Shown here: positions 3,463-31,568 of the stretch, piece after piece
How positions within the stretch are numbered: position 1 is the stretch's first letter
Layout of the letters: every line of letters begins with the position of its first letter
Origin: Methanosphaera stadtmanae DSM 3091
Lineage (GTDB): Archaea; Methanobacteriota; Methanobacteria; Methanobacteriales; Methanobacteriaceae
Length of the DNA: 32,000 bases
Assembly (NCBI RefSeq): GCF_000012545.1
Contig: NC_007681.1
Span: 750,001 to 782,000, forward strand
Direction of reading: 5' to 3'
The notes under the pieces: model-generated
What the model was told of the DNA's origin: nothing
Databases searched by the model: none
The model's input: the letters and a program-made list of their open reading frames with translations, nothing else
Translations under genes and position numbers: made by a program

Positions 3463-3752
3463 TTTTTTATTTTTTTTTTAGATTTTTATTTTATTAAACA
3501 TCATATAAAATAGAATTTAGTAAGGTTTTAAATATATTTTCTTATTTTTTTTATCTATAACTTTTTTTTTGAATATTTCTAATTAATATATGTCTTATAA
3601 AAAATATAAATTAGAAATGTTATTTTTTTTGATACATTTTTTTTTCATTAAATAATCATAATTATAATATTATATAACATACAAAAATAATATTACATTT
3701 TTTTAAATTTAATGATTTTTTTATAAAAATTCTATAATAAAATTGTGATTTC

Positions 3753-5525: not shown

Positions 5526-5552
5526 AATCCTTTTCTATTTTTTTTTGATAAT

Positions 5553-6425: not shown

Positions 6426-6444
6426 AAAATATAGGGAAAAATAA

Positions 6445-7296
6445 TTATCCCTGTAAATGTTTAAGTAATGGTTTTTCAAATGATTCATATGATGGTGTTT
6501 TTCCAGTAAATATTTCAAATGCCTTAATTCCCTGATTTATTAACATGTGTGTTCCAGGAATTGTTGTTGCTCCCTGTTTTTTTGATTGTTTTAGTAGTTG
6601 TGTCTCTAATGGATTGTATATAATATCCATAACAGTATGTTTAGATGAAATTTTATCAGTTTTAATGGGAGGTGCAACTTCATCTTTAGGATACATTCCA
6701 ATAGGAGTTGTATTGATTATAATATCAACATCATCAATCACATTATCAGTTTTTTTAATATTAATAAAATCTATATTTTCAAAGTTCGTCTGATTTTTAA
6801 GATTAGTAATTAATTTTTGAGCATTATCTTTACTTCTATTTGCAACTATCAATTGATTTATATTTTTATTTAATAATGTGAATGTTATAGCCTTTGAAGC
6901 TCCACCTGCACCAATTATCATTATGTTTTTGTCTTTTAATGAAGTGTATTTTTCAATTGATACTATAGCTCCAATACCATCAGTATTATATCCCTTTGCA
7001 ATTCCATCTTTAAAATTTATAGTATTTACTGCACCAATTTTTTCTGCAGTTTCATCTATTTCATCAAGATATGGGATAATGGTAGTTTTATGTGGTATTG
7101 TCACATTTAAACCTTTAATATTCAAGGTTTTTGCTGATGTTATTACATGTTTTAGATTTTCAACTTCTACATGGAATGGAACATATTTATAATCCATATT
7201 CATTAATTTATATGCATTGTTATGCATTGGTGGTGAAAAGCTATGTTCTATAGGATGTCCTATAACTCCTGTTATTAATGTTTTTCCTGTTATCAT
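6445..7296 (-). CDS. aroE: Shikimate 5-dehydrogenase
   Basis: GVIGHPIEHSFSPPMHN, NVTIPHK, NTDGIG and GAGGASKA motifs. Confidence 0.93.
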   Translation of the reverse strand: MITGKTLITGVIGHPIEHSFSPPMHNNAYKLMNMDYKYVPFHVEVENLKHVITSAKTLNIKGLNVTIPHKTTIIPYLDEIDETAEKIGAVNTINFKDGIAKGYNTDGIGAIVSIEKYTSLKDKNIMIIGAGGASKAITFTLLNKNINQLIVANRSKDNAQKLITNLKNQTNFENIDFINIKKTDNVIDDVDIIINTTPIGMYPKDEVAPPIKTDKISSKHTVMDIIYNPLETQLLKQSKKQGATTIPGTHMLINQGIKAFEIFTGKTPSYESFEKPLLKHLQG

Positions 7297-13890: not shown

Positions 13891-15480
13891 ATGGAAGAAG
13901 AATTACAAGAAATTTGGACTAATTATGATAGACAAACAGTATTTAATTATGTGGAAACTCGTTTACATCACTACTTATTCACAAAAATATTTAAAGATGA
14001 AGCAGAAATAATGAGTAAAATCATTGAAATTGATGAAAGAGAACTTAAAGGATTTAAAATAGATTATTATCTTAATATTCCAGAAACTATGGATTTAATT
14101 CAGAATTTTTCAAAATTAGAAACACAACTTGAAGGAAAAAATCTATCAGAAAATCCATATTCTGAAATTCTTAGTCTTATAAAATATATGTTTGAAAATG
14201 TTAAAAACAATGATACAAATAAGATTAATAATAAAAACTTCAATGATGATGCACTTGCAAATATAAATGACAGTATTTTATCCAGTAAAAAAGAAATATC
14301 AGCAATACTTAAAAAAGATTGTTTTAAAGATATAGATACACCAGATATTATTGATATTAATTTATTAGAAGATGCATGTAAAAATACTGATGATATATTT
14401 AATTTAGCAAGAGTTTATGAAGTATATGATGAATTATTTGTATTTCCTACTAAAATTGAATTATACAATACAATAACCAAGGAAATACTTCCTGCTATGA
14501 GTAATGATAAATTATTTGAATTATATGTATTACTTAACACTTTAGAAGTTCTTGAAACTACAAAAGGTACTATTACATTCCAAAAAGCTGGTGTTAGGGA
14601 ACTAGCTGAATATTACTTCCAAGTTGAAGAAAATAATATGGAACATACAACAGTAATGCAAATATTCTTCCATGATTTACCAGAAGAATTAGAAGCAAAA
14701 TTCAAACCAATTCTTAAATATCCATACATTTGTTTACGTATGAAAAATACTGTTAAAGCTCGTAATTTAACTCGTGTAAGTTATTTATTACTTGAAATTG
14801 AAAGAATTACAGATAATCAAATTAAATATAAATGTAAAGCTACAGAAGATATACGTAACATTCTTGTTGTATGGGATCATAGATTATTCAACGATGAAAA
14901 ATCACATATTAAAGTTCTAGATTATAAAACATTACAAATGGGATTAAATAAGTCATTTGGTAATATTTTCAAATTCCCTAATATTGAAAATGTTGATGCA
15001 ATTCTTGAATACATACCATACTTTGAAGATACAAGTAATGAATTTATGAAAGTTGAAGGTGGACAACGTTACTATGATGATGAAGCTGACTTCTTTAAAG
15101 ATGATTTATATCAAGAAAATATATATAGAACCTTTGATAATCTAAAGGATTGGGAAGAAAAAGGATGGAAATATATTAATAACCATGAATTAATTAAAAG
15201 ACTTGATCTTTTAACAATCATGAAAGTTCTTTATCTTATCATGCAGAAAGAAAATACTAGACCAGGGTTTTTAGGAAAACTTATGCAGGATGGTACAGTA
15301 TTAACAATTCTTAAAAGATTAGAAGAAATTAGAAATGTTAATGAAAGTGAAATTACTGAATTATATTCACCATATAAAAAACTTAAATGTTGTCCTATAC
15401 ATGATCCTGATTTCTATGCTGAAAAAGAAAAGGAAATGGATGATCTTTTAAGTAGAAAAGCTGATGAAGTAGATGAATAA
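13891..15480 (+). CDS. Hypothetical acidic 529-aa protein, no family recognised
   Basis: Long uninterrupted ORF. AAGGAGAG SD lies 7 nt upstream of the ATG. The gene is isolated by 247 bp upstream and 1.08 kb downstream of non-coding DNA. Confidence 0.65.
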   Translation: MEEELQEIWTNYDRQTVFNYVETRLHHYLFTKIFKDEAEIMSKIIEIDERELKGFKIDYYLNIPETMDLIQNFSKLETQLEGKNLSENPYSEILSLIKYMFENVKNNDTNKINNKNFNDDALANINDSILSSKKEISAILKKDCFKDIDTPDIIDINLLEDACKNTDDIFNLARVYEVYDELFVFPTKIELYNTITKEILPAMSNDKLFELYVLLNTLEVLETTKGTITFQKAGVRELAEYYFQVEENNMEHTTVMQIFFHDLPEELEAKFKPILKYPYICLRMKNTVKARNLTRVSYLLLEIERITDNQIKYKCKATEDIRNILVVWDHRLFNDEKSHIKVLDYKTLQMGLNKSFGNIFKFPNIENVDAILEYIPYFEDTSNEFMKVEGGQRYYDDEADFFKDDLYQENIYRTFDNLKDWEEKGWKYINNHELIKRLDLLTIMKVLYLIMQKENTRPGFLGKLMQDGTVLTILKRLEEIRNVNESEITELYSPYKKLKCCPIHDPDFYAEKEKEMDDLLSRKADEVDE

Positions 15481-15523
15481 TGTTATTCATCATACTTTTT
15501 CATTTTTAAATTATTTTTATACT

Positions 15524-15602
15524 TGTATTACTTTTTTTAGTTTTATTTTTAAGTTATTATTAATTATTACTTTTTTATATTTTTTTAATTAAAAGTTAAT
15601 AC
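15524..15602. repeat. Copy I of a repeated intergenic module (tGTATTACttttt ... TATTATTAATTATTACTTTT ... aaaaGTTAATAC)
   Basis: It shares an exact 20-mer (15555-15574 = 16143-16162) and flanking GTATTAC / GT(T)AATAC elements with copy II, at collinear offsets of 588-597 bp. Confidence 0.75.
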
Positions 15603-16120
15603 AATATCATTACTTATTATAGTATATTGTTAATGAATTTATGATATTTTATTCTTTAGAGTTGTTTAATCCAATTAAAAAAAGTAATACTTTATATAGT
15701 ATGAGTAATATAATTTATAATTGTAAGAATTAATACTAAATATTTAAAAAGTATTAATAATTACGTATCATAAATAGATTTATTAAAATGTAAAATTAGT
15801 ATTTATTAATATTTATTTTTCTAAAAGAAATAGCTAATTAATAGATAATAAAAAAATAGCCTAGTTAACATCTATGTAATATAATTTCCTCTTGAATTAT
15901 TTATAATAAAAAAAATACAAACTATAATTTTTATGCACGGAATATTTTTTTTTAAATAAAAAAATATTAGAGTTATAATACTCTTTTATATTATTTTTTT
16001 AGTCTTTATTTAGAATTTTTTTTTTAAAATCATCATAATTTTTAATAGATGATAGTTATAATCTAAGAAAAAATGAAAATTAGTTTCTTATTTGAAGTAT
16101 TATCCTATGATGTATTACTT

Positions 16121-16190
16121 TTTATATAGATTATTTATATACTATTATTAATTATTACTTTTCTATGTCTTTTTTAGTTTAAAGTAATAC
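16121..16190. repeat. Copy II of the repeated intergenic module, bounded by a perfect 10-bp inverted repeat GTATTACTTT / AAAGTAATAC
   Basis: Inverted-repeat arms at 16122-16131 and 16181-16190 are separated by 49 bp. The exact 20-mer shared with copy I lies between them. Confidence 0.8.
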
Positions 16191-16564
16191 TTTATGTTAC
16201 ATGATAGCTGGTTTTATTTTCAAAAATTATTTTATTCATGATTTAAAGGTATATAATTATGTTTTACATAATAAAGTTTATATAGAAAGAGTTATATATT
16301 TTATATTATAATTATAATACAAAATATAAAAAAAGTATTACTATTATTATAAATTCAAAAAAATATTTAAAACATGTGAAAGGTTTTTATTTTTTTAATC
16401 ATATCTTATAACTCTAAAACATGACTAAAAATATAATTAATCTAAACAACCTTTAGTATAATCCTCTTGAATAAATTATACATTTTTATTTTATATAGTC
16501 TATAAGTATTATATTTTATGATTAAATAAATAATCTTTTACAAAATATAAATGGAGACATATAA

Positions 16565-17188
16565 ATGCATATACCTGATGGTTTTATTACCATTCCATTA
16601 TGTGTAGTATTATATATACTAGCAATAGTATTTGTATTTCTATCAGCAAAATGGAGTAAAGAAAATTTAAATGAAAAATATGTACCATTACTAGCAGTAT
16701 TAGCTGCAGGAATTTTTGCTATAATGTCATTTAATCTACCAGTACCTTTTGGTTCTAGTGGACACCTCCTTGGTGCAGCACTTGTAGCAATAGTATTCTG
16801 TAGTCCATATGCAGCAATACTTGTACTTGCAATGGTATTAATTATACAAGCATTACTATTTGGTGATGGTGGAATAACAGCACTTGGAGCAAACATAATA
16901 AATATGGGTGTTGTAGGTGGATTTGTAGGATACTATGGATTTAAATCATTAAATAAAATTATTGGAAAATATCCTAGTATATTTGTATCCTCATGGGCTG
17001 CTTGTTTTATTGCAGCATTAGTAGCAGCTCTTGAAATATCTCTAAGTGGAACTTTCCCATTAGATCTAGGACTATTATATATGGGTGGTTATCATGCAAT
17101 GATTGGAGTTATTGAAGGAGCAATAACTGTTATAATTATTAAAGGAATTGAATCTGTACGACCAGATTTACTAGCATGGAATAGGTGA
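16565..17188 (+). CDS. cbiM: ECF-type cobalt/nickel transporter substrate-capture component CbiM/NikM
   Basis: N-terminal MHIPDG (metal-ligating Met-His N-terminus), multiple TM helices, and a GGYHAMIG motif. TGGAGA SD upstream. Confidence 0.9.
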
Positions 17189-17478
17189 TGTATATGGAGA
17201 AAAAACAATTATACTTTGGAATATTTATAGTAGCAATAGTTATCTGTATACTATCACCATTTTTAGCATCTGGTGATCCTGATGGACTTGAAGCTTCAGC
17301 TGAACATCTAAATCCTGATAGTTTAGAAGCAAGTCAAGTAATAACTCCTATAATGCCAGATTATACCTTAGAGGGCATGGAAGATAATCCTCTTGTAGGA
17401 GTGGCATGTTTAATTGTTGGGGCTATTATATCTGTAGCAGTAGCATATGGAGTATTTTATGCAATAAGTAAAAAATAA
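17185..17478 (+). CDS. Small two-TM accessory component of the CbiM/NikM module with a PDGLE motif (CbiN/NikN-like)
   Basis: TM helix, then [13 protein letters not shown], then a C-terminal TM helix. It overlaps the cbiM stop. GGTGA SD suggests the true start may be the ATG at 17188 or 17194. Confidence 0.75.
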
Positions 17479-17638
17479 TTTTTAATTTATTTTTTCTATT
17501 TTTTTTATTATTTTTTAGTCATATCTTAAATTTTTACATTTTTAAAACAATAATGATAAAAAATAAATTATTTTTTTAAATAATAATTAATATAATTAAA
17601 ATATATATTAATAATATTGAGTGGGGAGATAATTATTT

Positions 17639-18433
17639 ATGGTTAGTTTTAGTCAGTTACAACAACAAGATATTTATGCTACACAAAATAGTATACTACA
17701 TAATGTTGATAGTAGAATTAAATTATTAGTACTATTTTTAGTAATATTATTTGCTGTTTCTTCAAGTAATTTCATAGTATTTCTAACTCTGGAGATATAT
17801 TTAATAATTTTAATACTTATCTCTGGTATTTCATTAAAAGAAGCAATGATTAGAGTTCTTTTAATATTGCCCTTTGGTTTTTCAATAGCCATATTTCAAC
17901 CATTTATACAGCCAGGTCAGGTACTCTACACATTACCATTAGGAATACATATCACTCTTGAAGGTATTAATTTTGCAGAACTTTTATTATCTCGCCTGTT
18001 TATAAGTATAACTTCAATTGTATTGTTCTCATATATAACTCCAATGAAGGATATTGCAGAGGCTTTTAGAAAATTACATTTTCCCAATGCTTTTGCAATG
18101 ATTTTTTCATTATTTGTAAGATTTATCTTCCTATTTTATGATGAACTTAGAAGTATTCAACAAGCACAGGCAAGTAGAGGATTTAGTCTTTCAAATAACA
18201 CACCATATATGTGGAAATTAAAACAAGTAGGTAGTTTGTTTTTAATGATGTTTCTTAGAGCATATGAACGTGGAGAAACAGTATATCAGAGTATGGCAAG
18301 TAGATGTTATGATGCAGATAGTAGATTATATACATCAAAGAATAAACTATCCCTAAATAGTATTTTATATATTTTAATTCCAATCTTGATTATGATTATA
18401 TTATTACTACTTGAGTATGTTCATATAATTTAA
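17639..18433 (+). CDS. cbiQ: ECF transporter transmembrane (T) component CbiQ
   Basis: LHNVDSRIKLL start, multiple TM helices, and conserved ARG/ERGE-type loops (QAQASRGF, RAYERGETV). GGGGAG SD upstream. Confidence 0.85.
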   Translation: MVSFSQLQQQDIYATQNSILHNVDSRIKLLVLFLVILFAVSSSNFIVFLTLEIYLIILILISGISLKEAMIRVLLILPFGFSIAIFQPFIQPGQVLYTLPLGIHITLEGINFAELLLSRLFISITSIVLFSYITPMKDIAEAFRKLHFPNAFAMIFSLFVRFIFLFYDELRSIQQAQASRGFSLSNNTPYMWKLKQVGSLFLMMFLRAYERGETVYQSMASRCYDADSRLYTSKNKLSLNSILYILIPILIMIILLLLEYVHII

Positions 18434-18576
18434 ATTACTTTTTATTTTTTTTAAAAATATTCTATTATAGTATTTTGTTAGTTCTCTTGTTTTATATTAT
18501 ATTTTATATAGTTTTTCAATGACTTTTTTCTAAAACAATTACTTTTTCATATTTAATGTTATTTTATATAAAAATT

Positions 18577-18614
18577 GATTTTCTATATTATGAAAGATTT
18601 TCTATATTATGAAA
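18577..18614. repeat. Perfect tandem duplication of a 19-bp unit GATTTTCTATATTATGAAA
   Basis: Unit 1 is 18577-18595 and unit 2 is 18596-18614, and they are identical. They lie about 115-150 bp upstream of the 251-aa ORF. Confidence 0.95.
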
Positions 18615-18727
18615 AATATAATGAAAGAGAACTATATATTTTTCAGATAATTTTCAATAAAAAAACAATAATCTTTTAAAAAATAAGTTACAAAGTAATA
18701 AATAGATTACTAGGAATTTAAATAAGA

Positions 18728-19483
18728 GTGTTGAATAATATGGAATCTATAGTTAAACTAGATGATATTACAATTAAAGAATGGGAAAATGGAGTTATTG
18801 AATTTGAAGTAACTGATGAAAATAATAATCCTATTAGTGGAGATGCTGCAGTAAAACTTAATGATAGTACTTTTCTTAAAGGAAAAGTTGTTAATGGTAA
18901 ATTTTCAGAAAAATGTTCCTTCCAAGAAATTCATAATGAATCATACGATATAGAAGTAGTTTTTGATGGAAATGAAGAATGTAATGCAAGTAGAGCATAT
19001 GCAAAGTTATATGTTAAAAAAATAGATCCTATTATAATATCATTCCATGATTTACAAAATGCAGGTTATAGATTAGTTAAATGGATTAATATTAATAAAA
19101 GATTACCTGGAAAAATATCAATAAATAATCATCAAATATCAATAGGACATCTATTATATATCTTTTCAGATGCAGTGATAAATCTTAATAATAATATAAC
19201 TGATGATCTTGAATTAACAGGTATTGCTACACCAAGAGTATCAAGTGAAAATCTTAAATGTAATGTGATTGTCTCAAAAGAAGAAATTGTTGAAATTAGC
19301 GAAGCTATAATTGTTTATTCAAAAGAAAATAATGAATTACCTTCTACTATAGAAACTTCAAAAGGAAAAATAGGATTTATGAACTTATTATATACTTTAG
19401 CAGTTGTTATTGCTAATAGTTCATCAACTGGTCTTTTAAATAATGTTAATGTAAGACCTTGGAAAGAAATTGTTGCTAAGTAG
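18728..19483 (+). CDS. Hypothetical protein: N-terminal Ig-like beta domain plus two pseudomurein-binding-repeat-like segments; no signal peptide
   Basis: An internal repeat is visible: N-x2-LP-x2-I-x6-I-x4-LLY-x5-I-x-N occurs twice (NKRLPGKISINNHQISIGHLLY and NNELPSTIETSKGKIGFMNLLY). The start is GTG at 18728 or ATG at 18740. Confidence 0.6.
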   Translation: MLNNMESIVKLDDITIKEWENGVIEFEVTDENNNPISGDAAVKLNDSTFLKGKVVNGKFSEKCSFQEIHNESYDIEVVFDGNEECNASRAYAKLYVKKIDPIIISFHDLQNAGYRLVKWININKRLPGKISINNHQISIGHLLYIFSDAVINLNNNITDDLELTGIATPRVSSENLKCNVIVSKEEIVEISEAIIVYSKENNELPSTIETSKGKIGFMNLLYTLAVVIANSSSTGLLNNVNVRPWKEIVAK

Positions 19484-19513
19484 AAAAACAACATTTTCTT
19501 TTTTTAAGTACTT

Positions 19514-19798
19514 CTAACAAAATACTTCACTACGTGGCATATATTCACATAAATGTATTTCTTTTTTTGTAGCATCAATTGTAAAAACTAGTATTTTATC
19601 GTTTATTTCTATCCATTTATAGTTGTGGAGAGGTTTTTCAAAAGTATTAAATCTTGTTTTATGATTTAAAATAATTTTTGCATGTGTTTGCATTTCCTTT
19701 ATTTTATTTGCAAGTATGGTGTATTCTTTAATATTTACTGTTTTTAATTCATTTAAAGTTTTTTCAAGTTCTTTTTCCATAGTAATTTCATATACCAT
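19514..19798 (-). CDS. RelE/ParE-superfamily toxin-like protein (archaeal RelE-like)
   Basis: About 94 aa. The pattern YEI..(helical K/E-rich)..Y.WIEI.D.IL.F.ID...K.I.L..Y.PRSEVF resembles aRelE. I moved the start to the ATG at 19798 because GAGGGG lies 9 nt upstream of it. Confidence 0.5.
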   Translation of the reverse strand: MVYEITMEKELEKTLNELKTVNIKEYTILANKIKEMQTHAKIILNHKTRFNTFEKPLHNYKWIEINDKILVFTIDATKKEIHLCEYMPRSEVFC

Positions 19799-20266
19799 TA
19801 ATAACATCCCCTCATTTATCTAACTATATATTGTTTAAAAAAATAATATAATTCAATACCATATTGTAAAATTTCTACTTCTTTATTATTTTTTTATACT
19901 TATTTTCATTTTTTATATTTATTTTATAAAATTTAAATCAATAAAAACTCATATCTCTTATACAATAATATATTCACTACCTTATAAATATTTATGGATT
20001 TATTGATAATAAAAAAAAAGAATATGTTATTTATAATTTCATTGTTTTTATTTAAATAAGGATAATAAATATTAAGTATAAACTATAAAATAAAATATAG
20101 ATTTAATATTTATTTAAATAACTAATTTTATCTATGATATGTTATTGTCATGATATACTGATTATTTATATATAAACCTGTAGAACAAGGGAGATAGCTT
20201 AGTAATTCTACTATCAAATATAATAGTATAGCCTAAGAATTGTTCAAAAATATAGTGTGAAAAATA

Positions 20267-21364
20267 ATGTCAGCAGCAGAGGATCGAATCAAACAGATTG
20301 AAGAGGAGATAAAAAATACTCAGAAAAATAAGGCAACATCACACCATATAGGTAAATTAAAAGCACAAATTGCTCAACTTAAGGAAAAAATTGAAAAACG
20401 TAATAGTTCTGGTACTAAGGGTGAAGGTTTTCTTGTAAAAAAAAGTGGTGATTCAACTGCAGTACTTCTTGGTTTTCCATCTGTTGGAAAATCAACAATC
20501 CTAAATTATTTAACAAATGCAAATTCCAAAGTTGGAGCATATGAATTCACAACATTAGATATAGTTCCAGGTATCATGGAATATGAAGATGCAAAAATTC
20601 AGATATTAGATATTCCAGGTATTATTAAAGGTGCATCAAAGGGAAAAGGAAAGGGTAGGGAAATTTTATCTGCTACTCGTAATGCAGACCTAATTATTAT
20701 GGTATTGGATGTATTTCAACCAGAACATATGGATGTAATTCTAGAGGAAGTTCGTAATATTGGTGTTAGACCTAATGAAAAGAAACCTAAAGTAAAAGTA
20801 TCTAAGAAAAAGATGGGTGGTTTAAGTATAGTATCTACTGTTGAATTAACACATATAGATGAAAAAACTATACATTCAATATTAAGTGAATATGGTATTC
20901 ATAGTGCAGATGTTGTATTAAGAGAAGATGTTACAATAGATAGATTTATTGATGCTATGGAACCAAACAGAGCATATATTCCAATGACTATTGTTGTAAA
21001 TAAAATTGATATTGCAACAGAAGAACATTTAAATAATCTTAAGAAAAAATTACCTAATGCATTATTTGTATCTGCTGATGATGGTATTATGATGAATGAA
21101 TTAAAGGAAAGAATATTTGTAGATCTTGATTTAATCCGTTTATATCTTAAACCTCAAGGTAAAAAAGCAGATATGGACGAACCATTGATTATAAGAAAGG
21201 GTTCAACTATAGAGGATGTTGCTAGAAAATTACATAGGGACTTTGTGAAAAATTTCAAGTATGCAAAGGTATGGGGAGAATCTGTAAAATTTCCAGGTCA
21301 AAAAGTTGGACTTGATCATGTATTAAGTGATCATGATATTGTAAGGATTATTATTAAGAAATAA
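20267..21364 (+). CDS. DRG/OBG-family GTPase with C-terminal TGS domain
   Basis: G1 [10 protein letters not shown]3 DIPG, NKID and a C-terminal TGS-like domain. The N-terminal coiled region is typical of archaeal/eukaryal DRG. Confidence 0.92.
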
Positions 21365-21473
21365 TTTTTCTTATGATATTTATTCCTTTTTTTTTAAATT
21401 AAATTTAATGTTTTTAATGTATTTTTTAGTGTTTTAGTACTACAATATATATCCTAGTTTTTCAATATAATAT

Positions 21474-21557
21474 AATTGTACCCACAAAACAAAATTATTT
21501 TAAAATTGTGATTGCATATAATTTCTATATAAAATAAATTATATAGTTTCACAGTTT
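21474..21557 (+). repeat. Copy A1 of an ~84-bp hairpin-forming intergenic repeat (possible small RNA gene)
   Basis: Conserved boxes are AATTGTACCCACA (21474-21486), AAAATTGTGAT (21502-21512) and TCACAGTTT (21549-21557). An oligo-T tract follows. Confidence 0.8.
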
Positions 21558-21727
21558 CTTTTTTATTGAAGTTATTTTTTTTAGAGAATTATTTTTTCAT
21601 AATTTTTATTTTATTAAATTCAAAATTAGTTTTTATATAATCAAACATTTTCATTTAATTTATATTTTATAAAGAAAAATTTATTAAAATAATGTAAGGA
21701 TATATACACTACTTATTATAAATAATT

Positions 21728-21808
21728 AATTGTACCCACAGAACATATAATTAACAAAATTGTGATGTTTATAATTATCTTTTCACTAATTATAATAAGT
21801 CACAGTTT
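21728..21808 (+). repeat. Copy A2 of the ~84-bp hairpin-forming intergenic repeat
   Basis: The same three boxes occur at 21728-21740, 21756-21766 and 21800-21808, at an offset of 251-254 bp from A1. A T-rich tract follows. Confidence 0.8.
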
Positions 21809-21824
21809 AATTATTTTTAAAAGT

Positions 21825-22547
21825 TTATTTAATTAAATTATTAATTTTTATATTTTCATTTTCTAATTTTAAAGATTCAATTAATTTTTTAGCATATACA
21901 AGTTTTAATTTCTTAATATCATCTGCCTCTTTTAGTTCTACTTCTATTTCAGGTCGTGAATAATTTGTTATAATATTACCAAAATCCATTCCAGCAAGTG
22001 TTATATCCTTGATTTTAAGATCATACAGTGCAATATGCACAGCTCTATCCCCATCTGTAAATCCACCATGGTTTTCAAGTAAATCATATGGTTTTGTCTG
22101 TGTTGTAGGTATAATATTTTTTAGTTTGGGAACATATTTTTTTATTTTATTAACATTATCTCCATGTGCATGAACATAGAGTATGGAACCTCTTTTATTT
22201 GATTTAAGTATACTGTCTATATTTCCATCAAGGTCTGTTACTATTATTGAGGGTATGATATTCTCTTCAAGAAGTGCTGTTGTTGCACCATCAGCTGCAA
22301 TTAAAGTATAATTATTAAGATTGAAATTATTTTTAATTAATTGTATATGTTTTTTAATTGATGGTCCTGCTCCAAATACAATACATTTATTATGTACATG
22401 TAGATGGCTTTTATTAAATTTCCCATATTTTTTAATTAGGTTATTTAGTATGTCTGCTGAATATTTATCATCATCTTCACTAAAATTAAAATCCTTACAT
22501 ATTTTTTTATACCATATATTCCAGTTGTTATTTGTTATATTATCCAT
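21825..22547 (-). CDS. mptE: MptE-like 6-hydroxymethyl-7,8-dihydropterin diphosphokinase (DUF115 family)
   Basis: FGAGPS, IAADGAT, VTDLDG and HAHGDN motifs. The ORF-track start is a GTG at 22556; the ATG at 22547, preceded by GTGGT, is the more likely start. Confidence 0.8.
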   Translation of the reverse strand: MDNITNNNWNIWYKKICKDFNFSEDDDKYSADILNNLIKKYGKFNKSHLHVHNKCIVFGAGPSIKKHIQLIKNNFNLNNYTLIAADGATTALLEENIIPSIIVTDLDGNIDSILKSNKRGSILYVHAHGDNVNKIKKYVPKLKNIIPTTQTKPYDLLENHGGFTDGDRAVHIALYDLKIKDITLAGMDFGNIITNYSRPEIEVELKEADDIKKLKLVYAKKLIESLKLENENIKINNLIK

Positions 22548-24205: not shown

Positions 24206-25429
24206 GTGGTAGCAGAATCGTTACTAAACACAGGTGATACGGCCTGGATACTAATGTCAACGGCATTAGTTATGATTATGACCCTACCAGGGTTAGCATT
24301 ATTTTATGGAGGTATGAGCAAAAATAAAAACGTTCTTAACACAATGTTCTTATCTCTAACCGGTTTTGCCATCGCATCAGTGATTTGGATAGCATATGGA
24401 TACCAATTCACATTTGGATCAACAATCGGCGGATTTATAGGAGCACCAACAAATTTCTTATTAACAGGAATTTCACTTGATATGCTTCATGTAGACACAA
24501 CAATACCTGAATTATTATATGTAGTGTTCCAAGCTACATTTGCAGCAATTACAGTTGCATTAATATCAGGAGCAGTAGTAGGAAGAATGAAAGCAAAAGC
24601 ATGGATGGTTTTTGTAGCATTATGGTTAACATTAGTATATGTCCCAATAGCTCACTGGGTATGGGGTGGAGGATGGTTATTTAACCTTGGTGCATTAGAC
24701 TTTGCAGGAGGAGCAGTAGTACACTTAAACTCAGGTATAGCAGCACTAGCATTAATAACCGTACTTGGACCTAGAAAAGACAGACGTTTATTACCTCACC
24801 ATTTAGGATATGCAGTAATAGGTGCAGCATTATTATGGTTTGGATGGTTTGGATTCAATGCAGGATCAGCTCTTGGAGCAAATGGATTAGCAGCAAATGC
24901 ATTTATAACAACCAACACTGCAGCAGCAATGGCAATGATTGCTTGGATATTATTAGATATCTGGAAAACAGGAAAACCAACAATACTTGGTGCAATAACA
25001 GGTGCAGTAGCAGGACTTGTAGCAATTACACCTGCAGCAGGATTTGTAGATGTACCAGCATCATTAATAATTGGATTTACAACAGTATTTGTATCATACT
25101 TCGGTATATCATACTTAAAACCAAAACTTGGATACGACGATGCATTAGATGCATTTGGAGTACATGGATTATCAGGAACATGGGGAGCAATACTTACAGG
25201 AGTATTTGCATGTCCTGCAATTAATGAAGCAGCAGGTTTATTATATGGTAATCCAAATCAATTAGTAATACAAATAATAAGTATAGTAGCAGTAGCATTA
25301 TACTCATTTATAGTAACTTACATTATTGCTCAAGTACTCGATAAAACAATGGGTATAAGAGTAGATGAACAAACTGAAATAGAAGGTTTAGATGCAAACG
25401 AACATGAAGAAGTAGGTTACAGAATATAA
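24206..25429 (+). CDS. amt: Ammonium transporter
   Basis: [31 protein letters not shown] and AFGVHG signature motifs. GTG start with GGAGGA SD 6 nt upstream. Confidence 0.95.
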
Positions 25430-25447
25430 ACATAAGGATATGATACA

Positions 25448-25786
25448 ATGAAACAAATTACAGCCATATTTAGAAATGAAAGACTAGATGCAGTAAAAGA
25501 TGCACTAGAAAAAATAAACTGTAAAGGAATTACAGTTATGGATGTAAAAGGTAGAGGAGAACAATTAGGAATTGAAGAAAACTATAGAGGAAATAGTTAT
25601 AGAATTGATCTTCTTCCAAAAATAAAAATTGTAACAGTAGTACCTGATAATAATGTTGAAAATGTAATAACAGCAATTACAGAAGCAGCAAAAACAGGTA
25701 ATGTTGGTGATGGAAAAATATTTATTACCAATATAGATGAAGTAGTAAGAATAAGAACAAATGAACGGGGAGACAAAGCTTTGTAA
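25448..25786 (+). CDS. glnK: Nitrogen regulatory protein PII (GlnK), amt-linked
   Basis: 112 aa. T-loop GRGEQLG...YRGNSY and C-terminal TG..GDGKIF motif. It sits 18 bp downstream of amt. Confidence 0.93.
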   Translation: MKQITAIFRNERLDAVKDALEKINCKGITVMDVKGRGEQLGIEENYRGNSYRIDLLPKIKIVTVVPDNNVENVITAITEAAKTGNVGDGKIFITNIDEVVRIRTNERGDKAL

Positions 25787-26126: not shown

Positions 26127-26170
26127 AAAAAAAAGTTATGGGGGTTATATCTTAGAGAAATTATTCTCTA
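26127..26170 (-). terminator. npdG terminator: hairpin spanning the stop codon plus a T8 run (minus strand)
   Basis: TAGAGAA/TTCTCTA 7-bp stem with a 4-nt loop (26153-26170). An A8 run on the plus strand at 26127-26134 gives T8 on the transcript. Confidence 0.5.
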
Positions 26171-26841
26171 GAAATTCCAGTGATTCTTAATCCACCATAA
26201 TGGGATTTGTATTTTATATTTAATCCAATGAGAAGTGGAGTTATTTTTTCAATCATTCTTGCTTTTTCTAATTTACCACAATCAATACATTCAACACCAG
26301 GTATTTTTTCAATTAATTCAATAGCTATTTTTTTAGCTTCATTATCATTTCCAGCTATTAAACAGTCACAATCTATAGGTTCTGGTATGTTTTCAAGTAA
26401 TGAATTACTTATATTATTAAATGCAGCAATTACTTTAGCATCAGTTTTTTTAAGTATTTTAGCAGTTCTTTCTGCAGCTGAACCTTCCATTAAATCTATG
26501 AATCTTGCAGGTGATCCACCAATTGCAGTTTCAAGAGGAACTGTTGCATCAAGAACTATTTTATCTCCAACAAAATCTTTAATTGATTGTAATGTTGGTT
26601 TTTGTGCTGAAAGAGGAACTGTTAAAATTAATAAGTCACCAGCTTTTGCAGCATCTTCATTTGACATTCCTTCCATTTTAATATTATCATAATCTTTTAA
26701 TAAATCAAGGCATTCTTCTACTTTTGTTAAAGCCTTTTCTTCTTTTCTTGAACCTATAATAACATCTTCTCCAGCTATTGCAAATCTTTTACCAAGATTT
26801 AAACCTTGTGATCCTGTTCCACCAATTATTGATATTTTCAT
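26161..26841 (-). CDS. npdG: F420-dependent NADP oxidoreductase (Fno/NpdG family)
   Basis: The N-terminal string MKISIIGGTGSQGLNLGKRFAIAGEDVIIGSRKEEKA closely matches the Fno N-terminal Rossmann signature. The size is about 225 aa. GAGGT SD lies 7 nt upstream. Confidence 0.87.
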   Translation of the reverse strand: MKISIIGGTGSQGLNLGKRFAIAGEDVIIGSRKEEKALTKVEECLDLLKDYDNIKMEGMSNEDAAKAGDLLILTVPLSAQKPTLQSIKDFVGDKIVLDATVPLETAIGGSPARFIDLMEGSAAERTAKILKKTDAKVIAAFNNISNSLLENIPEPIDCDCLIAGNDNEAKKIAIELIEKIPGVECIDCGKLEKARMIEKITPLLIGLNIKYKSHYGGLRITGISRE

Positions 26842-27040: not shown

Positions 27041-27391
27041 TTAAATAGCATTAACACCACGTTCACCAGTTCTTATTCTGATAATATCTTCTATATCAGA
27101 GACAAATATTTTACCATCTCCAACATTACCAGTAAAAGCACTACTTTTAATAGTATCAACTATCTTTTCAACTTCAGTCTCAGTAGTAATAATATCTAAT
27201 TTAATTTTAGAAATCAAATCAACATTATATACATTTCCACGATATTTTTCGACAATACCTAATTGTTTGCCTCTACCTTTTACATTACTGACAGTTAAAC
27301 CTTTACAATTAATATTTTCTAAATTATTTTTTACAATATCTAATTTTTCAGGTCTAATAATAGCTTCTACTTTTTTAAACATAAAATTCAT
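27041..27391 (-). CDS. PII-family signal protein linked to the glutamate-synthase-like operon
   Basis: The strings VEAIIRPEKL, T-loop GRGKQLG..KYRGNVY and TGNVGDGKIFV are PII signatures. It lies 14 nt downstream of the FMN subunit stop. The start is possibly the ATG at 27382. Confidence 0.9.
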   Translation of the reverse strand: MNFMFKKVEAIIRPEKLDIVKNNLENINCKGLTVSNVKGRGKQLGIVEKYRGNVYNVDLISKIKLDIITTETEVEKIVDTIKSSAFTGNVGDGKIFVSDIEDIIRIRTGERGVNAI

Positions 27392-27405: not shown

Positions 27406-28884
27406 TTATCTAACTAGAGGTATTCCAGTAATTTGTGAAGCTTCCATAGTTAATGAAACTAAATCCTCTTTTTCAAGTTTTTGAATATCAGTATTACCTG
27501 CCTGTTGAGTTAACATTTTAGCCTCAGCAGTCATTGCTTTAATATAATTAGCAACTCTTTGACCACCACGCACTGGATCTAATCTTCTTCTTAACATTCT
27601 ATCCTGTGTAGCAATACCTTTAGGACATTTACCTTTACTACATGCTTTACAAACCTTACATCCAATTGATACTAATGCAGCAGTACCAATATATGTTGCA
27701 TCTGCACCTAATGCTATAGCTTTAGCAACATCAGCACCAGATCTAATACCTCCAGCAGCTACAAGACTTACCTCTGTTCTTAAATTAACTTCTTTAAGGG
27801 CAGTATCTGCTTCCATAATTGCTTGTATTGTAGGAATACCTGAATGTTCTGTAATAACTTCAGGGCCAGCTCCTGTACCACCTTGCATACCATCAATAAC
27901 AATTATATCAGCACCAGCTTTTGCAGCAATTTTAACATCTTGTTCTACACGTCCAGCAGTAAATTTAACAATGATTGGAACTTTCCAATCAGTAATATCA
28001 CGTAATTGATCAATTTTCATTCCTAAATCCTCTGGACCTACAATATCCATGTGTCTTGCAGGACTTAAGGCATCTGTACCTTGTGGAATATTTCTAATTC
28101 TTGCTACTTCTGCTGTAACTTTTTTAGCAAGAAGATGTCCTCCCATTCCAGATTTAGCTCCTTGTCCAATCTTGATTTCAACAGCTTCAGCATTGTTTAA
28201 GTAATTTGCAGACATACCAAATCTTCCAGAAGCATATTGGGCTATTAATTTATCAGCATAATGACGTTCTTCAGGTAACATTCCACCTTCACCAGTATTT
28301 GATGCTGTACCTGCAAGTGTTGCTCCTCTTGCAAAGGAAATTTTAGCTTCTTTACTAATAGCACCAAAAGACATTGCTCCAATCATAATAGGAGTATCAA
28401 TTTTTAATGGATTTTCTGCAAAACGATCACCTAAAACAACTTCAGTTTTACATGGTTCCCTATATGAATCTATAGGAGGACGTGAAACTTGTGCAGGTAA
28501 AATACTTAAATCATCAAATGTTGGAACTATTCTTGTTGCTCCACAACCTCTAACTTTATATGAACCTGTTGAAGATTTACGTTGAATTTCAAGCATTGAT
28601 TGACTAGACCATACACCTCTTCCTTCATATGGAAGGGGAGTTACATAAATTGCATTTGTAGGACACATTTGTTCACATATTTTACATCCTACACAGTTTT
28701 CTTTATGTACTGGTTGTGGTTCATCATTTATTATTTCATAAACATCATGTGGACAGTTAGAATAACAACTGTAACAATTTTTACATAATGATTTTTTTGG
28801 ATTGTCACAGAGATACCAGCAACATCCTGGACGATTATTATTCCTTTTACATATTTCAGATCTTCTTTCTACATTAAAAGGCAT
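27406..28884 (-). CDS. Glutamate synthase FMN-binding (GltB domain 2-like) subunit with an N-terminal 2x[4Fe-4S] ferredoxin region
   Basis: CKNCYSCYSNCP and CVGCKICEQMCP ferredoxin motifs. These are followed by a GltS FMN domain (IMIGAMSFGAIS, NTGEGG, KIGQGAKSGMGGHL, DGMQGGTGA, GGIRSG, CPKGIATQD). Confidence 0.88.
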   Translation of the reverse strand: MPFNVERRSEICKRNNNRPGCCWYLCDNPKKSLCKNCYSCYSNCPHDVYEIINDEPQPVHKENCVGCKICEQMCPTNAIYVTPLPYEGRGVWSSQSMLEIQRKSSTGSYKVRGCGATRIVPTFDDLSILPAQVSRPPIDSYREPCKTEVVLGDRFAENPLKIDTPIMIGAMSFGAISKEAKISFARGATLAGTASNTGEGGMLPEERHYADKLIAQYASGRFGMSANYLNNAEAVEIKIGQGAKSGMGGHLLAKKVTAEVARIRNIPQGTDALSPARHMDIVGPEDLGMKIDQLRDITDWKVPIIVKFTAGRVEQDVKIAAKAGADIIVIDGMQGGTGAGPEVITEHSGIPTIQAIMEADTALKEVNLRTEVSLVAAGGIRSGADVAKAIALGADATYIGTAALVSIGCKVCKACSKGKCPKGIATQDRMLRRRLDPVRGGQRVANYIKAMTAEAKMLTQQAGNTDIQKLEKEDLVSLTMEASQITGIPLVR

Positions 28885-29955
28885 TTAAATCACATCCTCT
28901 TTCAAGTCAATTAATGGTTTGAATACTGGACATACAGAGTATTTTGTTCCAGATGATTTAACAATTTCATCAATATCATCAGTTAATACAGGGTATGGTT
29001 TCCAGGCAAGGTCATCTTTTTTATCTACAACTAAAGCTTTAGTAACAATTTTATTGGATACTAAGTAGTCAAGTATTGTTGTAACAACAACACCATCTTG
29101 TCCATCATAATGTTTTAATGATCTTACTGTCATTATTTTTTTATAATCTCCTAATACTTTAGATGAATCATTTCTAAGTTTTTCAGGAATGAATGTTCTA
29201 GGACATACAGCAAAACAGAAATGACAGTCTTCAGGACATTTTTTACTTTTTCTTGGTTTTGAATCTTTAATTGTTATTAATCCATCAGGACATGCATATT
29301 CACATGCTCCACATAAAACACAAGCTCCAACATCAATAACATTTTTTCTTAGATCTAAGAAATTTGAATTATTTATTTCATCAAGAATAGCATTATCTGA
29401 TATTTCTCTTTGATATAATACTGGTCTTGCATGATATTCACGTTCTTCTATTGTTTCTAAGTTGTTTTGTATTTTTTTATCTGCAATTTTATTTAATAAT
29501 TTTAGTTGGGATTCTGTTAGATCATGAGCTTCAATATATCCCTGACTAATTGCATTATTAATAACATCTTGTCCTTTTTGTGTTCTTATTATGATTGTGG
29601 ACCAGCCATCTTCTGAACCTATGGAACCTATGGATATGTCTGATGTTTCTGATGATAATTCAGCACATATATGACAGTTTTTTCTAACAACTGATTTTGC
29701 AATGGATAATGGTATTTTTTCTAGTTTTCCATTTTTAAGGAAAATAAATGCTTTACCTTTTTCAATTCTAAATTTTTCTATTTCATCCATTGTTATGTTA
29801 TATTCCTTTAATAACTCAGTAAAATAGGAATATGAAAAGTTTTCCATACAGAATAAACCTATTTTAAAGTCAATTACTGATTCTGTATAATGTTGAATTT
29901 TTGATGCTGCCATTATTTCACATGGAGTTCCAACCATTGCTACTTTTTGATTCAT
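28885..29955 (-). CDS. FrhB/FdhB-family (F420-interacting) iron-sulfur flavoprotein-like subunit, domain order permuted
   Basis: aa 5-140 match the FrhB C-terminal domain (GTPCE, GLFCMENF, CHICAELSSETSDISIGSIGSEDGWST). aa 212-251 carry two Cys clusters (CVLCGACEYACP, CPEDCHFCFAVCP). aa 268-345 match the FrhB N-terminal domain (LGDYKKIMTVRS, GQDGVVVT, GTKYSVCP). The start overlaps the upstream stop (ATGA). Confidence 0.85.
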   Translation of the reverse strand: MNQKVAMVGTPCEIMAASKIQHYTESVIDFKIGLFCMENFSYSYFTELLKEYNITMDEIEKFRIEKGKAFIFLKNGKLEKIPLSIAKSVVRKNCHICAELSSETSDISIGSIGSEDGWSTIIIRTQKGQDVINNAISQGYIEAHDLTESQLKLLNKIADKKIQNNLETIEEREYHARPVLYQREISDNAILDEINNSNFLDLRKNVIDVGACVLCGACEYACPDGLITIKDSKPRKSKKCPEDCHFCFAVCPRTFIPEKLRNDSSKVLGDYKKIMTVRSLKHYDGQDGVVVTTILDYLVSNKIVTKALVVDKKDDLAWKPYPVLTDDIDEIVKSSGTKYSVCPVFKPLIDLKEDVI

Positions 29956-30632
29956 TTTTTACCCCCTGATTCAGTTTTAGTTTCACCATTAGTTATTTTT
30001 TTAAAGTTAGTATAATCTATATCACTTAATTCAAAGCCATATTTTGTTAATACTTCTTTTAATTCATTTTGGTCATCAAGGGTTGTGTGTTTTAGTACTG
30101 CTTTTTTACCTAGACTTTTTACTTGACCTAGTACATAGATTGTTCCACGCATAATGGATTCACCAGCATCATCTGTCACATCACCTAGAACTATAAGTCT
30201 TCCACCCATCATAAGAAGTCCAGTCATGAAGCCACTATTACCACCTATAATGACTGTTCCACCTTTCATGATTTCTCCAGTTCTTGAACCAGTATCTCCT
30301 TTTACAACTACAGTTCCATTATAAATTCCTTGTCCTGCACCATCACCAGATCCTCCTTCGATAATTAATTCTCCACCAGTCATATTATCTCCAGCAAACC
30401 ATCCAGCATTTCTAGTAATATGTATTTTTGCTCCATCTACCATGGTACCAACGAAGTATCCAGCAGATCCAACAATTTCTATTTCTACTTCTTCTATTAG
30501 TCCTGCTGCAATGTTGTGTTTAGATTGTGGATTTTTTATAATTAATTTATCATAATCTAGTGCATGTTCTTTTATGGATCTATTTAATGTTTTTTCATCC
30601 ATATCTTTAGCATCAATTGTATATTCTCTCAT
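29952..30632 (-). CDS. Glutamate synthase GXGXG (GltB domain 3-like) subunit
   Basis: Repeated GXGXG beta-helix motifs (GSAGYFVG, GGSGDGAGQG, GDTGSRTG, GGNSGFMTG). GGGAG SD upstream. Confidence 0.88.
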   Translation of the reverse strand: MREYTIDAKDMDEKTLNRSIKEHALDYDKLIIKNPQSKHNIAAGLIEEVEIEIVGSAGYFVGTMVDGAKIHITRNAGWFAGDNMTGGELIIEGGSGDGAGQGIYNGTVVVKGDTGSRTGEIMKGGTVIIGGNSGFMTGLLMMGGRLIVLGDVTDDAGESIMRGTIYVLGQVKSLGKKAVLKHTTLDDQNELKEVLTKYGFELSDIDYTNFKKITNGETKTESGGKK

Positions 30633-30650: not shown

Positions 30651-31568
30651 TTATATTGTATAAGATCTTGTTTCACCCGGTGCTATTTGTTCTACATGGT
30701 CTGTATCTAGTACATCTTGTAGGGACATTTCTTCTGAAGCTATTGCAAACACATCATCATTTTCTGCCATTACTCCAGGTCTTAATCCTAATTTATCCTT
30801 AGCTATACCAATACCATTTGGAGTTCCAACAAGTATTGAGAATGGTCCATCTAAATCATGCACTGCTTCTTCTAATGCTTCTTCTAATTTATATCCTTGA
30901 TGTAATTTATCTGCCATGTAATGTACTATACATTCTGTATCATTGAATGATTCAAATTTATGTCCTTTTCTTTCAAGTGGATCTCTTATTTTCCAATAAT
31001 TTGTTATTTGTCCATTGTGTACTACTGTTATATCAGGTGTTATGTAACTTTGATATGGGTGTGCATGATATCTATCCACACCACTTTCTGTAGCAAATCT
31101 AGTATGTCCTATACCATGAGTTCCTACTCTTGAAGGTACGTTGTAACGTTTTGCAATGTCTTTTACAAGTCCAACATCTTTTATCATTTCAAATGAATGT
31201 GAACCATTTATTACTTGTATATCTTCTATTTTATCGAGATTTGTAATTAATGGTTTTAGTAATGAATAGTTTTCTAGATGTATTTCACATCTATATACAT
31301 CATAGTCATCTACAGAATGAATTAATTCTTCATTGTATATTGGACTAATCTGAGTTAAAGTTGTTTTGAGTTGATCAAGCAACATTGGTTTATTTTTTAA
31401 TTCTATATTTAGTTGATAATTATTTTCTGGAAGATTTAATCCACCATATATAGCAAAACCAGCAGAATCTGGTCCTCTATGTTGAAGAGATTCTAACATA
31501 GCAGTTAATGATTCTCCAACATTATGTGTTTTTTTATCTTTATATATTACTCCTGCTATACCACACAT
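30651..31568 (-). CDS. Class II (Ntn) glutamine amidotransferase subunit (GltB domain 1-like)
   Basis: The N-terminal MCGIAGV (catalytic Cys2), HRGPDSAG and HTRFATES are class II GATase signatures. The start overlaps the pdxT 3' end by 13 nt. Confidence 0.85.
   Translation of the reverse strand: MCGIAGVIYKDKKTHNVGESLTAMLESLQHRGPDSAGFAIYGGLNLPENNYQLNIELKNKPMLLDQLKTTLTQISPIYNEELIHSVDDYDVYRCEIHLENYSLLKPLITNLDKIEDIQVINGSHSFEMIKDVGLVKDIAKRYNVPSRVGTHGIGHTRFATESGVDRYHAHPYQSYITPDITVVHNGQITNYWKIRDPLERKGHKFESFNDTECIVHYMADKLHQGYKLEEALEEAVHDLDGPFSILVGTPNGIGIAKDKLGLRPGVMAENDDVFAIASEEMSLQDVLDTDHVEQIAPGETRSYTI

Follow-up and report, generated by a model that had tools for sequence, protein, structure and literature searches.

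A FrhB-family protein with permuted domain order encoded in the glutamate synthase operon of Methanosphaera stadtmanae

Introduction

Why does a FrhB-family protein encoded within the glutamate synthase (GOGAT) operon of the archaeon Methanosphaera stadtmanae DSM 3091 carry its domains in a swapped order, and from which arrangement did that order arise? The gene occupies positions 28885 to 29955, on the minus strand, of the 32,000-nucleotide stretch that we analysed (positions 750,001 to 782,000 of contig NC_007681.1, assembly GCF_000012545.1; hereafter the window). It encodes a flavo-iron-sulfur protein of 356 residues, which we characterized by using Pfam and NCBIfam models, a PDB sequence search, an AlphaFold model and its homologues. 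In this protein, the C-type domain of the FrhB family (C) is followed by a 2x[4Fe-4S] ferredoxin domain (Fd) and then by the N-type domain (N). A preliminary description made from the DNA sequence had interpreted this arrangement as a circular permutation of the N-C-Fd order of FdhB. It had also proposed that the permutation may reposition the site for flavin adenine dinucleotide (FAD) and coenzyme F420 relative to the iron-sulfur wire that feeds the flavin mononucleotide (FMN) of the GltS subunit. We find that the C-Fd-N order is real, that the protein is very probably a clean circular permutant of a different arrangement, Fd-N-C, and that the same order occurs beside several other enzymes.

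The gene is an ordinary Methanobacteriaceae orthologue of a subunit that has been described before. Kaster et al. (2011) refer to ‘subunit 4 of F420-dependent glutamate synthase’ (MTH193/MTBMA_c06440), whose activity ‘remains to be proven’, and Susanti and Mukhopadhyay (2012) used the names FGltS(II) and FGltS(II)-alpha and called the protein an FdhB homologue. The swapped order is likewise not new, since it was already in print in 2013. Specifically, the legend to Fig. 9 of Mills et al. (2013; eLife, PMC3591093) states that the termini of the M. marburgensis protein ADL58239 align with FrhB in swapped order. Chadwick et al. (2022) report FrhB paralogues beside Pfor, CODH and glutamate synthase genes, including a clustering of FrhB6 with Pfor in ANME-1, and do not discuss domain order. 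Our literature search yielded no paper that pairs ‘circular permutation’ with F420 or FrhB. In all likelihood, the 356-residue protein feeds electrons into the archaeal glutamate synthase as its putative F420H2-oxidising subunit, known as FGltS(II)-alpha or ‘subunit 4’.

Results

A hidden Markov model scan with Pfam places both domains of the FrhB/FdhB family (PF04422 and PF04432) above the gathering score. The FrhB_FdhB_C domain covers residues 3 to 148 (29512 to 29949; minus strand, as for all features of this gene) with an E-value of 1.2e-46, matching model positions 2 to 149 of 150 at 158.8 bits against a cut-off of 23.3, and its canonical C-terminal helix runs on to about residue 173. The FrhB_FdhB_N domain is located at residues 282 to 348 (28912 to 29112), with an E-value of 9e-18, model positions 12 to 77 of 78 and 64.6 bits against a cut-off of 22, and the chain ends 8 residues beyond it. 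Pfam Fer4 dicluster models identify the 2x[4Fe-4S] ferredoxin domain at about residues 205 to 255 (29191 to 29343), where the cysteine patterns are C212-x2-C-x2-C-x3-CP and C240-x3-C-x2-C-x3-CP. The order is therefore C-Fd-N, as had been claimed, and not the canonical one in which the N-type domain comes first and is directly followed by C. The swapped order represents a permutation of the same fold and does not speak against homology.

Every motif listed in the preliminary description was found in the translation. The C half contains VGTPCEI (residues 8 to 14), GLFCMENF (33 to 40), CHIC (94 to 97) and SDISIGSIGSEDGWST (105 to 120), and the C domain carries the motif SDISxGSxGSxxGWST. The ferredoxin motifs are CVLCGACEYACP (212 to 223) and CPEDCHFCFAVCP (240 to 252). 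Those of the N half are LGDYKKIMTVRS (268 to 279), GQDGVVVTT (285 to 293), WKPYP (318 to 322) and GTKYSVCP (336 to 343), so that the N domain shows the features QDG(V), WKPxP and GTKYSxxP. The NCBIfam models for frhB and FpoF each align in two stretches, with the N-terminus of the query on the C-terminal halves of the models. Scores of 193.3 against a cut-off of 331.5 (frhB, TIGR03289) and 130.2 against 475 (FpoF, NF040616) are below the curated equivalog cut-offs, which indicates that the protein is neither the hydrogenase subunit FrhB proper nor FpoF.

The C-Fd-N order is real and far beyond chance. We found no support for an artefact of assembly, frameshift or gene calling in which two genes are read as one, and this explanation can be dismissed. 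As noted earlier, the ATG of the gene overlaps the TGA of the upstream GXGXG gene (ATGA); it is preceded by GGGGGT, and the TAA abuts the ATG of the GltS-FMN gene. In an alignment of 62 permuted homologues, all N-termini share this position. An identical protein (P0001) is present in the NCBI, ENA and Logan assemblies, and several hundred homologues are collinear with it (all of the 120 best matches over 97–100% of the query). Furthermore, a scan of GTDB with a six-sequence alignment recovered C, Fd and N in one uninterrupted reading frame in each of the best 80 loci, all of which are from Methanobacteriaceae, and the full-length structural model is a confident one.

The PDB sequence search reveals the kind of permutation. 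Residues 197 to 345 of the query align as one block with residues 7 to 164 of 8riu_B (Fd and N), and residues 3 to 171 align with residues 176 to 348 (the C domain and the C-terminal helix). Only residues from about 172 to 196 find no counterpart in 8riu_B. The same two-block pattern is observed with 8rja_E and 7npa_A, and the segment of about residues 173 to 196 (29368 to 29439), left over between the blocks aligned to 8riu_B and 8rja_E, corresponds to a new linker. The overall E-value is 2.9e-51 for 8riu_B versus 3e-20 for the FdhB chain 8rvu_E, which matches in a single stretch through the C domain. The ferredoxin domain of the query is homologous to the N-terminal ferredoxin domains of 8riu_B, 8rja_E and Fsr, and also to the C-terminal one of FrhG; with FdhB, the search matched the C domain only and did not reach its C-terminal ferredoxin. 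Since Fd and N align as one block and FdhB is matched through its C domain alone, we consider it highly probable that the protein arose by clean circular permutation of the Fd-N-C arrangement (Fsr-N/FpoF/CODH-zeta type) rather than of the FdhB arrangement. Other enzyme-linked members of the FrhB family keep a canonical order (Fd-N-C in 8riu_B, 8rja_E and the Fsr structures 7np8 and 7npa; N-C-Fd in the FdhB chain 8rvu_E), which supports a true permutation. The circular permutation noted at the outset thus stands, and its derivation from FdhB is very improbable.

Domain coordinates in the relatives agree with this derivation. In 124 Fd-N-C relatives, the gap between N and C has a median of 1 residue. 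In the permuted proteins (n = 95), the first residue lies about 2 positions into the C-domain model (median –2), about 5 residues follow the N-domain model, and the distance from the end of C to the start of Fd is 41 to 53 residues (median 49) in all 95. For comparison, the tail and head of Fd-N-C proteins together comprise a median of 37 residues (interquartile range 25–46). Such a pattern is predicted by the duplication-fusion route to circular permutation. No duplication intermediate (Fd-N-C-Fd-N-C or similar) was present among 261 relatives. A metagenomic protein of 593 residues (P0178) was considered as an intermediate and ruled out, because its architecture, Fd-Fd-N-C-Fd-Fd-Fd, is a canonical core flanked by ferredoxins. 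In P0178, the C domain and the following Fd are collinear with residues 3 to 230 of the query, and the protein shows that ferredoxins can be attached at both points simultaneously. At locus L085, two canonical Fd-N-C paralogues (1183 to 2388 and 2907 to 4049) lie upstream of the permuted gene (5001 to 6155) on the same strand, and neighbouring FrhB paralogues of this kind are raw material for duplication and fusion.

Neighbour-joining trees (100 bootstraps) were built from the N and C columns (239 columns, 255 sequences) and from the Fd, N and C columns (298 columns, 245 sequences). In these trees, the permuted proteins fall into four groups, the deep nodes are unresolved and the monophyly of the permuted proteins has a bootstrap value of 0. 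Mean distances are smaller among the permuted groups than to non-permuted proteins, and the groups have their breakpoints and linker length in common.

A full-length AlphaFold2 model built from the 62 permuted homologues has a pLDDT of 92.6 and a pTM of 0.92. When compared with the PDB by Foldseek, it matches FrhB-family chains only, over 175–190 columns at a root-mean-square deviation (rmsd) of 1.9–2.4 Å and a TMq of about 0.45, as one collinear half, which the sequence alignments identify as the C half. The structural comparison with FrhB that had been suggested as a check on the permutation therefore aligns half of the protein, and no PDB chain in the Foldseek search is collinear with the model over its full length. 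The FdhB chains 8rvu_E and 7bkb_E align over 277–290 columns (C and Fd collinear), but the rmsd is 9 Å. When the Fd+N half was modelled separately (pLDDT 86), the result superposes as a single piece of 171 columns on Fd and N of 8riu_B (TMq 0.76) and gives a TMq of 0.61–0.68 with Fsr (0.68 for 7np8_A), but aligns with FdhB over 55 columns only. Neither half-match gives a sign of rearranged cofactors, and we expect the permutation to have left both the three-dimensional fold and the cofactor chain as they were.

The cofactor ligands are conserved. Four cysteines (C12, C36, C94 and C97) are kept in 93 of 93 permuted proteins, in about 146 of 147 Fd-N-C proteins and in 6 of 6 N-C proteins. By alignment offsets, they would correspond to Cys104, 134, 192 and 195, the [4Fe-4S] ligands of M. 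marburgensis FrhB (Mills et al., 2013). The eight ferredoxin cysteines are invariant or nearly so across the permuted homologues. The predicted cofactors are FAD and three [4Fe-4S] clusters, of which the C-type domain would bind one and the ferredoxin domain two. The QDGG motif of the N domain, which we take to be an FAD loop, is kept by most relatives (130 of 148 Fd-N-C proteins, 77 of 95 permuted ones), and reads QDGV in the window protein (residues 286 to 289; 29089 to 29100, minus strand).

In Methanobacteriaceae, the permuted gene is predominantly part of a glutamate synthase operon. The order GAT-GXGXG-(C-Fd-N)-GltS_FMN is found in 72 of the 80 loci, including those of Methanothermobacter (L048) and Methanobacterium oryzae (L019), and 46 of these 72 also have a PII gene after the operon. 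Methanosphaera and Methanobrevibacter provide the closest homologues. The remaining eight loci (L049, L061, L068, L070, L076, L077, L079 and L080), mostly from Methanobrevibacter and including M. cuticularis, lack any glutamate synthase gene within 6 kb of the permuted one. Their unlinked permuted genes form a separate clade (58–95% identity within it, 42–53% to the operon-linked type), and none of their assemblies is among the operon-linked loci of the best 80. In most of the eight loci the permuted gene itself lies near 6001 to 7060, and six of the eight have a conserved gene of about 341–347 codons beside it.

Distant permuted proteins (29–40% identity), collected by a second protein search, nine contig look-ups and one metagenome scan, occur with other partners. 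In uncultured archaea, the permuted gene heads operons for a POR-type 2-oxoacid:ferredoxin oxidoreductase (gamma-delta-alpha-beta), often with overlapping genes. These operons are found at L083 (6001 to 10064; L096 is the same contig), L085 (5001 to 9182), L088 (2076 to 6214) and L089 (5001 to 8976), and on 12 more contigs of the metagenome scan (L090–L092, L095, L097–L103 and L111). This linkage suggests an F420-coupled 2-oxoacid oxidoreductase. Nap-like clusters with a permuted gene are present at L084 (1162 to 8687), L086 (141 to 7680), L112 and L114, in the order molybdopterin oxidoreductase, NapG-like, NapH-like, NapD, permuted gene, multihaem cytochrome and COX1-like. At L087 (3983 to 7302; GCA_001045015.1), a gap of 4 nt separates the permuted gene from a PreA-like gene (DHO_dh+Fer4), and the cluster also includes a CN-hydrolase, a class III aminotransferase and a xanthine/uracil permease. 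This looks like a pyrimidine-catabolism cluster in which an FrhB-like protein replaces the NADPH-dependent subunit of PreT/GltD type.

In six further loci (L093, 1611 to 3532; L105; L106, 4974 to 6901; L107, 511 to 2449; L110, 1931 to 4213; L113), the permuted gene lies 3 to 10 nt before mtd, which encodes the F420-dependent methylene-H4MPT dehydrogenase (PF01993, E-values 1e-102 to 1e-110). Two others (L081 and L082) have a permuted gene with no recognisable partner. When the best 150 cluster representatives (50% identity) are sorted by domain order, Fd-N-C accounts for 113, C-Fd-N for about 17 and N-C for 10, and none is N-C-Fd. Because C-Fd-N with equal breakpoints and linker length occurs with POR, Nap-like, PreA-like and Mtd partners, the permuted order is probably characteristic of a wider FrhB subfamily with several partner enzymes, and not an adaptation to glutamate synthase. 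A survey proposed earlier, of whether the order tracks GOGAT linkage, accordingly gives a negative answer, and the unlinked Methanobrevibacter genes point the same way.

In the window, separate genes for the amidotransferase, GXGXG and ferredoxin-GltS-FMN polypeptides share one operon with the permuted gene, in agreement with the assignment to FGltS(II)-alpha. The first is a class II glutamine amidotransferase that starts with MCGIAG (30651 to 31568, minus strand; Pfam GATase_7 and GATase_6). It is followed by the GXGXG subunit, equivalent to the C-terminal beta-helix of GltB (29952 to 30632, minus strand; Pfam GXGXG, 1.3e-28), the permuted gene, and the FMN subunit, which carries a 2x[4Fe-4S] ferredoxin at its N-terminus (27406 to 28884, minus strand; Pfam Glu_synthase, 8.5e-130; Fer4 at residues 31 to 82). 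The last of these aligns with GltB residues 860 to 1158 of 7mfm_G and presumably accepts electrons from the FrhB-like subunit. No archaeal-type glutamate synthase was found in the PDB by sequence search. At about residues 419 to 438, the FMN subunit has a cluster motif, GCKVCKACSKGKCPKGIATQ, with four cysteines (C-x2-C-x2-C-x4-CP), whereas bacterial GltB (7mfm_G) has a three-cysteine [3Fe-4S] motif, GCvmmRACHLDTCPVGVATQ, at the same place. Because there are four cysteines instead of three, the archaeal subunit may bind a [4Fe-4S] cluster in place of the [3Fe-4S] cluster.

Directly downstream of the operon is a gene for a PII-type nitrogen regulator, identified from its translation (27041 to 27391, minus strand). 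A gene for an Fno-like F420:NADP oxidoreductase (F420_oxidored; 26161 to 26841, minus strand) lies two genes downstream of the operon, an arrangement found elsewhere only in the closest relatives (L005, L007 and L017); it is possible that it locally links the pools of F420 and NADP with nitrogen assimilation. An amt-glnK pair is present on the opposite strand (24206 to 25786). Outside these genes, the window is unremarkable Methanobacteriaceae chromosome, which encodes housekeeping functions and a pseudomurein-binding repeat protein. This part includes an open reading frame of 354 codons that has no Pfam match (2398 to 3462, plus strand), another of 529 codons with DUF6508 as its sole Pfam match (13891 to 15480, plus strand), and a stretch (14000 to 22000) in which the G+C fraction is 0.22–0.25, below that of the flanks.

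Discussion

The closest described counterpart of the window protein is the FGltS(II)-alpha subunit of Methanothermobacter, which is encoded in the same operon and has the same swapped domain order. The protein of locus L048 is collinear with the query over residues 4 to 348 (47% identity) and shares its gene order. The window protein differs from the Methanothermobacter protein in having QDGV for QDGG and an operon followed by PII and Fno-like genes. In comparison with the description of Mills et al. (2013), the N-type model here spans 83 residues (268 to 350) and the C-type part extends to about residue 173.

The Fd-N-C modules of the CODH zeta subunit (8RIU_B) and the Fwd-associated protein (8RJA_E) of Ca. 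Ethanoperedens, of the N-half of Fsr (7NP8, 7NPA) and of FpoF/FqoF share all three modules, the cofactor ligands and the contiguous Fd and N domains with the window protein, and provide its best sequence matches (E-values 1e-40 to 1e-51). They also have a role in common with it, as F420-coupling units attached to another enzyme. In the window protein, however, the cut falls at the N/C junction and a new linker rejoins the old termini. Thus, the segments equivalent to the C-terminal extension that forms the dimer interface in 8RIU, and to the N-terminal Fd that anchors the subunit there, are internal.

FrhB itself (4OMF, 4CI0, 6QGR, 9R51) shares the N and C domains, the four-cysteine [4Fe-4S] site and the fold (about 180 columns, 1.9–2.4 Å), but has the order N-C and, unlike the window protein, no ferredoxin domain of its own, since FrhG supplies one. 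There is also an analogy with the small subunits of GltD/PreT type in bacterial glutamate synthase and dihydropyrimidine dehydrogenase, which use a flavin and two [4Fe-4S] clusters to feed GltS-FMN or a PreA-type partner from NAD(P)H. Their fold is an FAD/NAD(P) Rossmann fold unrelated to FrhB, and the likeness is not one of homology. Permuted FrhB proteins adjoin both kinds of partner, GltS-FMN in the window and a PreA-like protein at L087.

Two alternative accounts concern the origin and purpose of the order. Descent from FdhB, with the N domain moved to the end, is also implied by the naming of Susanti and Mukhopadhyay (2012). FdhB (8RVU_E, 7BKB_E) belongs to the FrhB family and has an additional 2x[4Fe-4S] domain. 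In formal terms, rotating its N-C-Fd order yields C-Fd-N, and its C and Fd domains are collinear with the query in the long Foldseek alignments. However, those alignments are at 9 Å rmsd, the far weaker sequence match is confined to the C domain, Fd and N align contiguously with Fd-N-C proteins, and N-C-Fd is absent from the best 150 representatives, in which Fd-N-C accounts for 113. We consider this descent very improbable. At least as improbable, by a slight degree more so, is the proposal that the permutation is a glutamate synthase adaptation that repositions the FAD/F420 site relative to the iron-sulfur wire to the FMN of GltS. The gene is indeed embedded in a GOGAT operon at 72 of the 80 Methanobacteriaceae loci, and moving the termini to the N/C junction could in principle alter interfaces. 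Yet the same order, with the same breakpoints and linker length, is found beside POR, Nap-like, PreA-like and Mtd genes or with no partner, and both halves superpose on canonical structures, with Fd+N as one rigid piece. The repositioning put forward in the preliminary description is therefore not borne out, and a permuted Fd-N-C module that serves several enzymes accounts better for these data.

A third alternative concerns the electron donor. The subunit might use ferredoxin or another donor instead of F420, in the manner of HCAR, which would make the complex a ferredoxin-dependent archaeal GOGAT. HCAR (5dqr) is a detectable structural relative, and the protein scores well under the frhB and FpoF equivalog cut-offs. 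Several observations weigh against our interpretation of an F420-dependent glutamate synthase subunit of unchanged geometry: F420 dependence has never been demonstrated for a purified enzyme, and the enzyme, never purified, was still termed ‘putative’ in July 2026 (PMC13381448); QDGG is changed to QDGS or QDGV in 118 of 120 close Methanobrevibacter and Methanosphaera homologues, a clade-specific change; the eight unlinked loci show that the association with glutamate synthase is not universal; and the conclusion that the geometry is unchanged combines two separate half-matches, sequential alignments and a cofactor-free model. Nevertheless, the closest solved relatives are all F420-reactive (8riu_B, 8rja_E, Fsr and FrhB, with E-values of 1e-35 to 1e-51, against 1e-3 for HCAR), six distant permuted members are translationally coupled to the F420-dependent Mtd, and an Fno-like gene stands beside the operon here and in L005, L007 and L017. 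In addition, Kaster et al. (2011) cite Raemakers-Franken (1991), on ammonia assimilation in M. barkeri, for the F420-dependent enzyme. A donor other than F420 is therefore unlikely, although less so than either of the two preceding alternatives.

For an F420-dependent subunit, these findings are best explained by the following model. The Methanobacteriaceae glutamate synthase would be a complex of four polypeptides, namely the GATase, the GXGXG protein, the permuted subunit and the Fd+FMN subunit. The chain of the permuted subunit begins at the old N/C junction, and a new linker of about 25 residues joins the old C-terminal helix to the old N-terminal ferredoxin. The analysis established the domain order, the breakpoints, the conservation of ligands and operon and the fold of each half; F420 as the donor, the complex itself and the path of the electrons are inferred. 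In the model, F420H2 would transfer a hydride to FAD, from which electrons would pass to the FrhB [4Fe-4S] cluster and then to the two clusters of the ferredoxin domain. Finally, the FMN would reduce 2-iminoglutarate to glutamate.

The swapped order of this subunit having been reported previously, the interest that remains is in the breadth of the permuted subfamily and in its varied partner enzymes. One tentative possibility is that the C-Fd-N proteins form one ancient subfamily that arose by a single duplication-fusion of an Fd-N-C gene and that provides a portable F420(H2)-coupling module with a new docking mode. If this is true, the module would turn enzymes of ferredoxin or NAD(P)H type into F420-linked ones, with glutamate synthase, 2-oxoacid:ferredoxin oxidoreductase, Nap-type nitrate reductase and PreA-type dihydropyrimidine dehydrogenase as the candidates, and the internal ferredoxin and new termini would lead to docking unlike that of the Fd-N-C modules. 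With Fd-N-C, N-C-Fd and C-Fd-N, every rotation of a single set of three modules is represented in the FrhB family. Public records label the permuted members ‘coenzyme F420 hydrogenase beta subunit’ or ‘hydrogenase’, and such labels mislead metabolic reconstructions of methanogens and uncultured archaea. The gene neighbourhoods instead point to candidate F420-linked forms of 2-oxoacid oxidoreductase, nitrate reductase and dihydropyrimidine dehydrogenase.

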